Virus record (IMG/VR): IMGVR_UViG_3300021431_004083 | Location: 32,001-96,000 of that record | From: a virus | Lineage: Duplodnaviria > Caudoviricetes | Reading direction: 5' to 3' (one strand) | DNA: 64,000 bases | Shown here: positions 1,594 through 25,500 of the stretch, piece after piece | Numbering within the stretch: position 1 is the first letter of the stretch | How the letters are laid out: each line of letters begins with the position of its first letter | Position numbers and translations under genes: made by a program | The notes under the pieces: model-generated | What the model was told of the DNA's origin: nothing | Database searches by the model: none | The model's input: only the letters and a program-made list of their open reading frames with translations

Positions 1594-4500
1594 TCATTCG
1601 GCTTTCGCCAAATTCATATAAACAGCTTGGTCAAAACGACCTTTTGCGAAATCCCATGACGGGAGATTCGCCAAGAAGCGATAAAAGTCATCCGTCAACA
1701 GATAAGAGCCAAACTGATTCAATTCAGCTTCGCTGATATTATTTTCGGCATATACGTTACTGTTTTTATCGCTCGCCGCCTGATTAAGCCTTTGCAGCGA
1801 CTCTGTCTCCGTCAATCGCTTGATATACAGAGCGCCGTCGACGCCGTAAAGGTCGCCGTTACGGTATACAAAATACCCATGGTCTTGCTCCATATCGCCG
1901 CGACATTCGGCATACGCCGCTGTCAAAATCTTATCAAGTGAATGGTCAGGATAACCGCCCTCACGAATCAAATCGTTCGGAGCAAGCTTTCCTCTCGCGA
2001 AAATCTTCTGTGAGGAAACCTTATATTTACTCTCAGCATCCTGAACCGCCTGCTGCATTTCTTCTGTGTTGTCCTCGATGTTCTCATAGAAGTCATCATT
2101 GAGAAGCTCATCGATATCATCCTCATCCTCCGGACTGACGTTCTGAGCGTCATTGTCTTTCTCCAACATCCGGGCATTGATGTTTTCCATGACTTCGGCG
2201 GAATAATTATCGATATCCAACTGAGAGATATCGTAATCAGAATAACCGTAAGCCTCTTTATATGCTTCCTGTACATCTTTGGACAAGCAAGCCTGCGCCA
2301 TACGTTTCTCAAGCATCTTAACGAAATCGGGCTGATTTTGTCTTACGTCAAAATCGAGCGCCGAGGATAACGTCGGAATGGTTTGCAGCGAATAATCATG
2401 TCCGGGATGGACAATCGTATTCTTAAACAAACGCCACGACATCGGAAGAATCGTTTCGTTACGGTTCCAGATAGGACTGTCACCGGCACGGAAAACAATA
2501 GAGTTCCTTTCCGAAATGAACGCCATATCGTTATACGAGATAACAGGACGTTCTTCCGCCGACATCGTATAGGCGACCTTACCTTCGTTCGGTAAAAATA
2601 GCTTTTCAATATCACGCGTAACTTGCTTACTGTTTTTTCTTGCGACATGCGTTTTACCCGACATTTTTTCAAGGGTGTCGAGCATCGAATCATCGGTACT
2701 CTTCAAAAAGACTATATTTGAAGTATTCACGTTTTCACGCTGACTATCTCTTAAACGGACACAAAGTCCGCCCATCCCCGTTTCGGCTTACGTGGGCTTC
2801 GTTACCTAAAACCCAACTGCGTATCAATAGCAGCCCTACTGGCAGCTTGACCTGCCATAGTCGATACAGGTTCCTGTGATTCAAAACCACAAGCTTCCCA
2901 CGGGATTTAACCCCCGTTAGCATGATACTCATTTGTTTGGCTGTATCATACCCCATCGATAATGGAAAAAGGATGTAACAAGGCAATACTACGATTTAAA
3001 GCACACCTTGGACTATCTTATCAACTGAGTTTTTTGGTTTTATCGACAAAATAATTACTTAAAAAATCAGAAACATCTTCGAATGTACACAATGTATATG
3101 GAACCTCAATCATATCAATGCCATATTCTAAAGCATATTGTCTCTTTATCTCACTATTCTTTGTGAGACGATTATAATATTCTTGACCCCCGAACCATTC
3201 AATCGGTTTATAATGCTGTTCACCTTGGCACTCAATAAAACAAGAAAAATCTTTGGTTTTAATATAAAAATCAAAACGTAATTTCCCACCAACAACACTT
3301 CGCAAATCTTTAAATGATTTCTCTATCCAGAAATCCCTTTTTAAAACGAAGCCGATTGATTCGAGATATTTCTGTGTGTCTAATTCTAAACGAGAACGCT
3401 TCTTGCATCCGCAAGACGTGCAATCCCCATTCTTCAAAGACATTCCCATAACATCAAGCTCGTTGCCACAATCGCATCTGCAATGCCAAACAGCACTTTT
3501 GCTACCATTACGCTTCTTACTATGGGCATGTGAACCATTGCGATACAATACTGTCAAATACGAAAATCGTCTGCCAGTCAAATCATCAGTCAAAGCTTTC
3601 GAAACATGTTCCCTTTGTAAACAACCGCATGACGTACTCGTACCCGTTTTCAATGCTCTCGCTCTGACGTCTTTCACAGTTCCACAATCACAACGACATT
3701 TCCACATAATACTCCGAGTTTTACCAGTCAAAGAAACACGATTGGGAGCCTCATTAACAACTAACCATCTACCAAACCGTTGACCAATCAAATTTTCCTT
3801 AACACGCAGCCCTGCATCTTTATATGAGCATCCACACGAAATCTTGTCGCCTGATAACAAAGCACTACGTGTAGCGTTCACATGCATTCGACCACAGTCA
3901 CATGCACAGTCATACACATGTGTCATTGTGCTCTTACCACATAATTGTTTCCCAATATAAGACTTGACAACAAGCTTTCCAAATCTCTGACCAACTATAT
4001 CATTTATATCAATTTTTCGCATACAACAGTCTCCAAAAAATTATTTTTTTGTATAACTATTGTACCATAAAGTAATTATTTTGTCAACATAGTCACAATT
4101 AAATGCAACTGAATAATATATCGTCTTCCATATATTATTTCATTTGTCATTACAACAAAATATTGGACTATACGTCAAGGTCTACATGATTTTTCATGCG
4201 ATTCCCCCGGGTATTTTTCGAACGGTCATTAAAAGACTTACCATCCTACGGGGACGCAATCCCCCAGTCTCTGAACGTTCTTCTCATAGAGAAGATTCGT
4301 AACTGAACAAACCCTTGTAAATAATGACTTAGGATTTAACCATATCATCATCTGTGCGATTTTTTCTGCTTTCGCTGCGTATCGCGCCTATCATTACTGA
4401 TTACGCTGTAGCTCGCACAGCTCTTAAGGTTCTTCTCAGTATTTAACTCCCGTAATAGTACTTACACATTACGTATAAGCAGCGACTCAATCTATAGATA

Positions 4501-22500: not shown

Positions 22501-25500
22501 TTACGCGGCAACACGTCGGTTGCGCTGAAGAACAGCGACAACAAATCCATTTCCGTCGTATTTTCCCATAAAGCGGCTTTTGCTTCCGTCTCATGCAACA
22601 GACGGTTGTACTCAGCGTCAGAGATTTTATCAAAAGCTCCCGCTTCCGCTTTTTTACTGAACTCAATAGACGGATTCTTCATCTTCTTCGATGTGAGCTG
22701 TACAAATAACTGATAAGCATTGTAAAGCGTCACATGGCCCCACATTTCGTCGAGCTTCGTTTCGAGAATCTTCTCGTCCATATTCATTCGTTCAGCCTTC
22801 AATCTCAATTCGCGCTCTTCCTCAAGATAGTAGTCGATCAAGCCGTAAGCTGCACGCTTAAACGCGTTATTCGCAGCGTTCGGTGGACATTGGTTCGAGG
22901 AATATCCCTCTCACCGTGCCCCCACACCGTGCGTGAGAGTTTCCAACTCACACGGCGCTCCATCAACATCGCCAAAGACCGTTTTATTCATACCAACATC
23001 ATTCAATTTATCAAATCGCACTCCGTCTCACGCGCTTTTGAGAAACGAAGTGAAATCATCAAAATCGAAATCCGTCGACACAAATAAAGCAATCTTTATT
23101 GACGTCGACTTGAGGCTGTTGCTCCACGCTCATTGCAAGCGCTTCATCACTCGTGCCTCTACCCTCACCGTGACTAAATACAGTTATGAATTCCTGTATC
23201 ACTTCGGCGCCACCCGGTCAATATGAAAGATATCACATTGACAACGTTCACGGCTTTCGACGTTCCTTGTTCATTATCATAGATGATACGTAGGTCTTTG
23301 CTCTGCTCCGTCGGCAACTATATGATAAATCATATAAAACGATGTCATCAGTCCGGCAATCACACCGTCTCGTGCCGAAATAACTTTCGACCCTCACGAA
23401 GCTTTCATTCGCAAATTCGTCTAACGGGAAGCTATCCCGTGATTCTGACCATATACCATCGACAGCCCACCCATGCTATTGTCCACACAACACGATTGGC
23501 GTCATGCTGCACGTTTAGGGATACGCTGCATCTTACTCAGAATACTATGAGCCTCGATGTCATGAACAAAGTTAAAGTGTATATAAGATACACTTCATAT
23601 TTTCTCCGTATAGTATCGCAACTATACTTACAAATATAACGTCTCGCACGCCAGACAGGGTCATCGGCTCCGTCTAACGGAAAGAACACATCTGCAATGT
23701 TTTCAATGTATGCGGCGGTCTTGGTAAAATCGCCTTCCCGGGCACTCTGTGCCGCCAATCCTAACGGATTGTAAATATCGGTTTTCATCGCATTAATGAG
23801 ATTAAATTGTACAATCTCGAACCCACGAACCGTACCTCTTACGTAGAACTTAACCAGAAGCTCGCCCTTAGGGTCATTGATAACCATATTGTTAGGACGG
23901 CGTTCTCTTGTCCACATATCGAGGGTAGGCAAAAATCTTCAAAAATGAACGCAACTTCATTTCCCGGTCGTAAAGACCACGCTCAGGGCTTTCCCCTGAT
24001 GTTGAGACTATTTGTCAATTTGAAATATATATGGACCTAAATATTTATCATACAACTCATAAAACGACTTATCTGTTGTACACTTCGATACGTTTATCCT
24101 TAACAAATCAATATGATGAGCTTTCGCCCATACACACTTTATCTTATCGTTCTCACGAACTTGTCGATATTTAGTATCGCCACCGAAATAATGAATAGAC
24201 TTATAATGTTGAATACCGTCTAACTCAATCAACAAAACAGGCAGACCATGAACGTCATAAATAACAAAATCATATTTCAAATTACCTTTGTTACAACCAA
24301 TCAAACCATCAGGATGATATTGTGTATCAAAACGAAAACCACTTTTTGTTAAATATTCCGCGAATGTTCTCTCTGCGTGAGAAACAGACCGACAACCACA
24401 AGATTTAGTTTGTCCACCTGTAAGCAATAATGCCAAAACATCAGTTTCTCTGCCACAGTCACAGACACAATGCCATACAACCCTCGAATTTTTGCCAACC
24501 ATTCGATTAGGCATACGATATAAAACTGTTAGTTGACCAAACTTTTGCCCAACTAAATCTGTCACTTGCGGAGGGATTAAACTATCAAACTTATGGCAAC
24601 CGCACGACTGTGTATGACGCGACAATAAATGTGAACCCATAATATCGCATTCATTTCCGCAATCACAAATACAGTGCCACATTGTTTTACGATAGCCCTT
24701 AGGACTAATATACATCGGGGCTTCTCTCACCACAGTTAAAAAACCAAATCTTTGATTTGTTAAATCTCGTTTTATCATACCAGTATATATTTCAAACCAT
24801 TTATTTTTCTTCCGCCATTAGCTTGCGGTTTTACTCTCCCCCAAGGAGATAGTCGTTGAACGTCACGCATATGCTTTCACACTTAGCGCGTTCGCTGCTA
24901 AACACCCATTGTATCGATACCAACGGTTCACACCACGATATCATCTGTTCACTTTTTTCTGCTTTCACGGCCTGAATATTACATTCCAGTTTGTCGTTTC
25001 CGACTCCTGTTTCAGCGGAACAGCTTTAGGGTTTCAAAGCAATAAAAAATGAGTATTCATCTCATTTTACAATGAGAATGAACAGAGCCTTTCACTCGAT
25101 TACGGTTTGACCTTTACCAGCTCTCGTGCATTCGTTAGTATAAAGAATTATTTACTCTTTACATCTGCATCATTACAACACAGTTCAGCGTAACTTTTTA
25201 CCACAAGATTTTGCATCTTGTTTCGTCCGGTAGCGAAGACTCTTGGACAGATTATATTCTATGTTATCTCAAACATAGGTTCACCGTCTACGCGTTGCCG
25301 TTGACTGATGCTTTAATATCAGCCTTCACATTCTGATTACGGACACAACCCGTGTTCCAGCTTACTTCTTCGCTCATACTCCGTGACCTACATGACGAAT
25401 TCGTCACGGACGACCATTCTAAAAATATTGATATATGTGTATGACTATCAATAATTAATAATCGCGAGAACCATCGTATTTACCGGTGCGGTATCAACAA

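Follow-up and report, generated by a model that had tools for sequence, protein, structure and literature searches.

Three group I introns in a large-phage coupling-protein gene are probably cut after an exon G

Few features of group I introns are as conserved as their U-G wobble at the 5′ splice site, which is central to the mechanism, and the locus described here holds introns that seem to depart from it. The stretch of DNA that we analysed (64,000 nucleotides, hereafter the window) runs from base 32001 to base 96000 of a virus record that is 251,549 bp long and has direct terminal repeats (IMG/VR IMGVR_UViG_3300021431_004083; Caudoviricetes). Its minus strand carries what we take to be a conjugation-type coupling-protein gene, a name adopted from the annotation of a plasmid homologue, interrupted by 10 introns (8 group I and 2 group II). 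The original prediction placed three of these, introns 2, 8 and 9, after an exon G and not after the U of a U-G pair. To our knowledge, group B IStrons are the sole published exception to the wobble rule with experimental proof.

We conclude that introns 2, 8 and 9 are most probably mobile IA2 introns of the group B IStron ribozyme lineage, cut after the exon G. Junction positions, core and homology were determined here, cleavage after G has been shown by others in relatives, and the splicing of the three copies is what we infer from the comparison. Their limits are as follows.

Intron 2, 23930..25094, minus strand: IA2-type group I intron, 1165 nt; after exon G 25095; starts UGAAAGG, ends UUUUUG.
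Intron 8, 4577..5020, minus strand: IA2-type group I intron without an open reading frame (ORF), 444 nt; after exon G 5021; starts UGACUUAG, ends AAAUAG.
Intron 9, 3031..4509, minus strand: IA2-type group I intron, 1479 nt; after exon G 4510; starts UGAAAAU, ends CCAAAAA.

Junctions of introns 2, 8 and 9

The same gene occurs without introns in related IMG/VR phages of ~105-120 kb, and one such allele (L137:5109-9164, 1351 codons; L numbers denote phage loci) was used to set all junctions of the ten introns. The eleven open pieces of the window (26683 to 1594, minus strand) are colinear with a 1350-amino-acid Streptomyces plasmid protein. Joined, the 11 exons form a single 1356-codon frame, of which residues 27-1348 align to the intron-less phage protein with 52% identity. 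Introns 1, 6, 7 and 10 obey the textbook rule exactly, with an exon U and an intron-final G, and so provide internal controls; because they fit, the junction mapping itself is not the source of the anomaly at the other sites.

At the three sites in question, intron-less alleles in related phages run across without an added base, and the junctions are fixed to the nucleotide (^ marks the junction): GAG^CCT for intron 2, GGG^TTA for intron 8 and GGCG^ACTC for intron 9. At the intron 2 site, the intron-less DNA reads GTAATCGA(A/G)^CCGA, encoding VIE^P in 20 of 24 loci (L111-L134). The Pro is present in 23 of the 24; the exceptions to the motif are L130 (IIN^P), the distant L133 and L134, and L132, which is without the Pro. 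The intron 8 site reads TCGATTGG(T/A)^TTGGG (SIG^LG) in L135 and L137-L143. At the intron 9 site, L143 has TATGGCG^ACTCGGTAGATAAG (TATGGCG^ACTCGG, YG^DS) and the window has TATGGCG^(intron 9)^ACTCAGTTGATAAG. The colinear Streptomyces protein is consistent with these readings. The inserts (TGAAAGG...TTTTTG, TGACTTA...AAATAG and TGAAAAT...CCAAAAA) each lie directly after an exon G and each begin with TGA, so that the placement first read from the window is borne out by the intron-less alleles and by the 1356-codon frame.

With introns 2 and 8 cut behind the U and ligated behind the final G, the message would gain one base at each, which confirms the 1-nt frameshift that the original prediction had calculated. 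It is highly unlikely that these canonical cuts are in fact used, leaving the gene frameshifted and dead, or recoded. Introns 2 and 8 do allow a U-G pair at +1, as this explanation asks, but it is missing in intron 9 and in three relatives described below, and relatives of this ribozyme lineage are proven to keep the U in the intron (PMC4227781). The exons are undecayed, several having 75-91% protein identity to homologues, and all ten introns preserve the frame under junctions that follow the G rule.

Frame alone is equally compatible with a shift of both sites by one, in which cleavage would follow the U, canonically paired to G in introns 2 and 8, and ligation would occur a base further on than the final G; the mRNA would be exactly identical in the case of intron 8 and also of intron 5, discussed below. 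We consider this very improbable. Intron 2 would then give E-S in place of the E-P supported by the Pro of 23 of 24 phage loci and of the Streptomyces protein, and intron 9 would give G-V-S, not G-(D/E)-S. The final intron base would be C, U or A, homologues in L136 and L051 have no U at the junction at all, and the exact restoring of the intron-less DNA by G-rule boundaries would be a coincidence.

Guide pairing and ribozyme core

The internal guides were read in the three introns and compared with those of homologues from two other phage loci, L136 and L051.

Intron 2 guide, 25085..25090, minus strand: AGG-CUC (AGGCTC, 25090-25085); CUC pairs with exon GAG (P1) and AGG with 3′ exon CCU (P10); one U, then P2.
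Intron 8 guide, 5010..5019, minus strand: GACUUAG-CCC (GACTTAGCCC, 5019-5010); CCC pairs with exon GGG and GACUUAG with 3′ exon UUAGGUC.
Intron 9 guide, 4481..4492, minus strand: GAUUGAGU-CGCU (GATTGAGTCGCT, 4492-4481); CGCU pairs with exon GGCG and GAUUGAGU with 3′ exon ACUCAGUU.
Intron 2 layout: AGG-CUC-U-P2; exon end GAG.
Intron 8 layout: GACUUAG-CCC-U-P2; exon end GGG.
Intron 9 layout: GAUUGAGU-CGC-U-P2; exon end GCG.
L136 intron 8-like layout: CCC-U-P2; exon end GGG.
L051 layout: CUC-A-P2; exon end GAG.

The guide triplet of every member complements exon positions -3 to -1, and a single base separates it from P2. The combinations GAG/CUC, GGG/CCC and GCG/CGC across members show that the middle P1 pair covaries (A-U, G-C, C-G). 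On the 5′ side of the triplet, the guide pairs with the first bases of the 3′ exon and is thus continuous over the ligated junction. Shuffled sequences reach the junction-spanning pairing of intron 9 (13 bp) in 7/5000 cases, that of intron 8 (11 bp) in 100/5000 and that of the L136 homologue (9 bp) in 142/5000. The guides were confirmed at the minus-strand places originally proposed, as were the shared blocks GAAAGCAGAAA and AACC(C/T)TAA, each present once in introns 2, 8 and 9.

These layouts suggest a mechanism in which P1 would be very short, with the last 3-4 exon bases (GAG, GGG, GGCG) pairing with a three-base guide (CUC, CCC, CGC) that is followed by a single U and directly by P2. The guanosine cofactor would attack the bond 3′ of the exon G paired to the first C of the guide, and not the bond after the U of a U-G pair. 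Guide bases just 5′ of the triplet would form P10 with the start of the 3′ exon, and exon ligation would come after the terminal G (introns 2 and 8). The introns would have spread as ordinary homing introns, not by transposition.

Introns 8 and 9 were aligned with two L136 homologues (~67% identical, from another metagenome contig), and the structure was drawn by hand. The resulting core covers the P3-P8 helices, including the P3/P7 pseudoknot, and holds 67 pairs, of which 28 have compensatory changes; counted over the four sequences, 92.5% of all pair positions are paired. 0/500 shuffles equal that, and slid-partner controls give ~40% paired with 3-5 covarying pairs. Between P7 and P3′ lie the hairpins P7.1 (100% paired, 3 covarying pairs) and P7.2 (weaker, 50-83% paired). 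The guanosine-binding pair of P7 is G-C in 4/4 sequences (alignment columns 287-390). The IA-type elements that we read comprise a AATTGCTGGAAA-like P4/J4/5, the R/S-type elements GTTCAACGACTA (P7 5′) and GATATAGTC (P7 3′), and an extended P9. A terminal G is present in introns 2 and 8, and position -1 is G in introns 2, 8 and 9 in place of the textbook exon-final U of the wobble. A profile of the four sequences (nhmmer) finds intron 2 with E=1.6e-6 and no further copy elsewhere in the 251-kb genome, and in phage and plasmid collections intron 8 had weak partial blastn matches (Lactococcus and Staphylococcus phages) or none. By this covariation-supported core, introns 2, 8 and 9 are assigned to group I, class IA2.

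Several observations weigh against cleavage after the exon G or against the class assignment. The pairing across the intron 2 junction (P1 plus P10) amounts to 6 bp and is reached in 731/5000 shuffles, which is not significant alone. Rfam cmscan, at the gathering threshold and also at E<=10, gave no group I match on introns 2, 8 and 9; this negative has little weight, since the RF00028 model also misses the canonical introns 1 and 7 of the same gene. The boundary of intron 8 can slide one base rightward (exon U, intron ending U), and GGGU^...AGU^UAGG would yield an identical mRNA. For intron 2, one base leftward is possible (exon A, intron ending U), and for intron 9 no slide is possible; an exon U is therefore available to intron 8 alone, and only if that intron is without a final G. 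Lastly, intron 9 lacks a terminal G yet keeps the G-C guanosine-binding pair in P7; as every alternative 3′ site in use in a mutational study of an IStron of this kind ended in G (PMC13521648), it may ligate poorly or splice incorrectly.

The end of intron 9 (CCAAAAA^ACTCAG) differs from its L136 homologue, which has a G at the last position; the last ~30 bases are otherwise alignable, which makes a substitution the simplest cause of the terminal A. Alternatively, the A may be an unrepresentative base call. Intron 9 may instead use G 3025 (GGCG-UUGAUAAG, YG^VDK), the next G, 6 nt downstream and in frame, with an in-frame loss of two codons; close to the start of the intron stands CUUAUC (UUUAUC in L136), with which GAUAAG in the exon could form pairs. 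These features, together with an endonuclease ORF that extends into the exon, would suit a state of decay in which one or more of the introns, chiefly intron 9, self-splice inaccurately to give a protein that is truncated or two residues shorter, or rely on assistance in trans. We consider such decay unlikely, though a good deal less so than the shifted or canonical cuts above, as intron 9 retains intact core helices and intact guide pairing of 12-13 bp, and the downstream exons 10 and 11 are well conserved.

Cargo, phage relatives and group B IStrons

Two of the three introns carry an ORF.

Intron 2 ORF, 24011..24778, minus strand: 256 amino acids, homing-endonuclease-like; Cys-rich repeats and a C-terminal nuclease-like part.
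Intron 9 ORF, 3021..4022, minus strand: 333 amino acids plus stop; paralogue of the intron 2 and intron 6 ORFs.

The intron 2 ORF is enclosed in P8 (UUUGAAAUAUAU / AUAUAUUUCAAA) and matches PHROG 374/559/9084, 'HNH / homing endonuclease', with E down to 4e-34; a DUF2726 match is weak. In intron 9, the ribozyme core occupies ~4509-4160 and the ORF lies in the 3′ tail, crossing the 3′ splice site to a stop TGA (3023-3021) within exon 10. Upstream of this ORF is a promoter-like TTGACA (4087-4082) and, after 17 nt, TACAAT (4064-4059), and a GGAG precedes the ATG at 4022.

Using the homologues, we tabulated intron boundaries in other phages. The L136 contig comes from metagenome 3300031760 and holds two copies. 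One, at the same site as intron 9, starts with C and ends with G (TATGGCG^CAATGA...CTATATG^ACTCAG). The other, an intron 8-like copy with an ORF, lies at another site of the gene, GAGTTGGGG^AAAAGC...AATAAATG^AATTTGCAG (TTGGGG^AAAAGC...AAATG^AATTTG; DELG^NLQ). The nearest other relative, L051 (~1001-1989, minus strand; E=7e-24), splits a DnaB-like helicase gene of a 168-kb phage. Its junctions, ATGGAG^GGACTT...TTTACAG^AATACT, were placed from the intron-less L149 (247-kb phage; LTQE^NTVTETIQRL), and its ORF has an HNH-type N-terminal motif, by eye. The L051 intron was found in contigs from three metagenomes (also L146-L148 and L150; contigs of 3300018492 and 3300029424).

Provided that the intron must end in G, the -1 exon base is G in 6/6 non-IStron copies at five sites, so the gathered boundaries agree with what the three introns had suggested. 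The first intron base in these copies is U, U, U, C, A and G: the UGA start holds for introns 2, 8 and 9 but is not general. A sequencing or assembly error that made one-base artefacts at the junctions has next to no credibility, because the same pattern recurs at five sites, in independent metagenome contigs (L136; the L051 intron) and in published IStrons, which upholds the earlier argument from recurrence.

One further likeness concerns intron 9-type copies, whose first 13-16 bases resemble the exon just 5′ of intron 8 (CAATG.TTT.TATC; window 4482-4509 against 5021-5050, minus strand; L136:4485-4512). It is reached in 52/5000 shuffles for L136 and 377/5000 for the window, and may be a trace of an intron move between sites, or chance.

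IStrons were split into two groups by Tourasse, Stabell and Kolsto in 2014 (PMC4227781). Group B (IS607-type) comprises BcISt1, LsISt1, SrISt1 and CbISt1-4, including copies in C. botulinum phages; its members insert after AGGG, TGGG or GAGG, and the junction U is part of the intron (PMC4227781). For BcISt1 (Bacillus cereus group), splicing after G was proven by reverse transcription PCR and by sequencing of ligated exons and intron circles, and the shift was discussed alongside GG as the target of the IS607 transposase and a U-G pair displaced by one step (PMC4227781). IS607-family IStrons with a TGGG target have predicted splice sites confirmed by RNA-seq (preprint 10.1101/2023.11.20.567912). 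CboIStron and CseIStron also count among the group B ribozymes.

We compared our introns with CbISt3 and CbISt4 of Clostridium botulinum phage c-st (AP008983). The coordinates in the 2014 supplement appear to hold 5 nt of target, and we set the boundaries after TTGGG and AGAGG, respectively, by positional homology. The four-phage-intron profile finds CbISt3 with E=1.2e-12 and CbISt4 with 7e-4. Over 299 aligned nt, intron 2 and CbISt3 agree at 65% of positions, and their P7/P7.1/P7.2 blocks are nearly the same; the CbISt3 guide layout, GCCC-U-P2 after exon TTGGG, matches the guide-U-P2 of intron 2. Like introns 2, 8 and 9, group B IStrons have an IA2 core with P7.1, P7.2 and an extended P9, and a G-rich 5′ exon end (GAG, GGG, GCG here; AGGG, TGGG, GAGG there) with a short C-rich guide beside P2. 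In both, several members have U as the first intron base, able to form a U-G pair one step past the cut, before the loop.

The differences lie mainly in cargo and setting. Introns 2, 8 and 9 are without the IS607 module (no TnpA, TnpB or 3′-end guide RNA); introns 2 and 9 carry the homing-endonuclease-like ORF and intron 8 none. The ORFs of introns 2, 6 and 9 match PHROG families named HNH, homing or intron-encoded endonuclease; given such matches and the ORF-less intron 8, introns 2, 8 and 9 are not IStrons. Group B IStrons end in CGG beside a long AU-rich stem of inverted repeats, whereas these introns end in UUUUUG, AAAUAG and CAAAAA, the latter sit at conserved codons of phage genes in the fashion of homing introns, and the non-IStron relatives vary in the first intron base. 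By sequence comparison, introns 2, 8 and 9 share a ribozyme lineage with group B IStrons, here without the transposon. The subfamily with an exon G paired to C at the 5′ site is thus supported by intron-less alleles, P1 covariation, the L136 and L051 homologues and IStron homology; the original prediction was right that it exists, but it had already been described (PMC4227781).

The U-G pair one step past the cut can be drawn in introns 2 and 8 and in CbISt4, and is lacking in intron 9 (U opposite U), in both L136 copies, in L051 and in CbISt3 (as read here). Because it is missing in several members, the U-G pair cannot mark the cut site. As a hypothesis resting on eight sequences, a fixed ruler of triplet, one base and P2 fits the six phage copies and CbISt3; CbISt4 seems one pair longer. 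We also considered a changed J5/4 strand, on the wobble-receptor side (UUG, UUG, CUG, UAG, UGU, not A-rich), as a mark of exon-G introns and dropped it, as group B CbISt4 has CAA.

Introns 2, 8 and 9 resemble the canonical phage IA2 group I introns (T4 td type), and also introns 1, 6, 7 and 10 of this gene, in self-splicing architecture, endonuclease cargo and a phage protein-coding host gene, and differ from them in that the canonical introns have an exon U and a final G, whereas these have an exon G in a G-C pair.

The host gene and what exon-G cutting means

The ten introns and three exons that adjoin introns 2, 8 and 9 are listed below.

Intron 1, 25460-25129, minus strand: group I.
Intron 2, 25094-23930, minus strand: group I.
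Intron 3, 23649-22883, minus strand: group II.
Intron 4, 22441-7717, minus strand: group II.
Intron 5, 7053-6684, minus strand: group I.
Intron 6, 6622-5490, minus strand: group I.
Intron 7, 5424-5098, minus strand: group I.
Intron 8, 5020-4577, minus strand: group I.
Intron 9, 4509-3031, minus strand: group I.
Intron 10, 3004-2728, minus strand: group I.
Exon 2, 25095..25128, minus strand: 34 nt, Walker A motif TRAGKGQTVIE.
Exon 9, 4510..4576, minus strand: 67 nt (LGQEQQFTLILQTLQQLRDVYG), flanked by introns 8 and 9.
Exon 10, 3005..3030, minus strand: 26 nt (DSVDKIVQG), flanked by introns 9 and 10.

Intron 5 (6684..7053, minus strand) is a different IA-type group I intron with GTAAC at both ends and a weak Rfam RF00028 match at 6715-7045. 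The sole placement that ends in G gives a G at -1 (CCTTG^TAACGG...ATGCG^TAACACC), and P1 would then be UUCCUUG/CGGGGAG with a UAA loop. Intron 5 is thus a possible fourth exon-G case, of another lineage and architecture.

Micro-exons of 34, 61, 65, 67 and 26 nt lie between introns (25095-25128, 6623-6683, 5425-5489, 4510-4576 and 3005-3030, minus strand). The canonical intron 6 (5490-6622, minus strand) has an ORF, 5501-6370, paralogous to the endonuclease genes of introns 2 and 9; one endonuclease family is therefore found on two ribozyme types in one gene. In intron 4, the 5′ part (GTGCGAC..., Rfam D1-D4 22385-22232) and domain V/VI (7801-7717) are 14.7 kb apart on the minus strand, and the interior holds ~10 same-strand genes, among them one for a DNA methylase (20854-21702) and several for signal-peptide proteins. 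Intron 4 is either one giant group II intron or split and trans-spliced, and exons 4 and 5 join in frame (A^EK). Other coupling-protein homologues (L111/L135, L130, L136) hold other intron sets, with the intron 7 site occupied in a 198-kb phage, 1.6 kb inserted in L130 where intron 3 would lie, and three introns in L136; ~20 phages of 105-120 kb hold none.

Set against the published class, what is different or new is the endonuclease or empty cargo at conserved phage codons, the varying first base and the terminal A of intron 9, with intron 5 as a possible fourth case; this is an incremental advance and not a new principle. Since the same ribozyme lineage occurs as ordinary homing introns, the after-G trait would belong to the ribozyme and not to the transposon. 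These introns offer natural variants for the study of cut sites, with or without an endonuclease gene, in essential-looking phage genes and with a variable first base, and they give a rule for annotating phage genes whose frame seems off by one base. We tentatively suggest, while holding it somewhat less probable than its converse, that the exon-G-cutting IA2 ribozyme is an independent, endonuclease-borne lineage of large phages that was later recruited by the GG-inserting IS607, and that site choice may need no U-G pair, the reactive G-C being set by its position, 3-4 pairs above the P1/P2 junction. If true, group I ribozymes would, with such a position-set G-C pair, have a second way of recognising the 5′ splice site.

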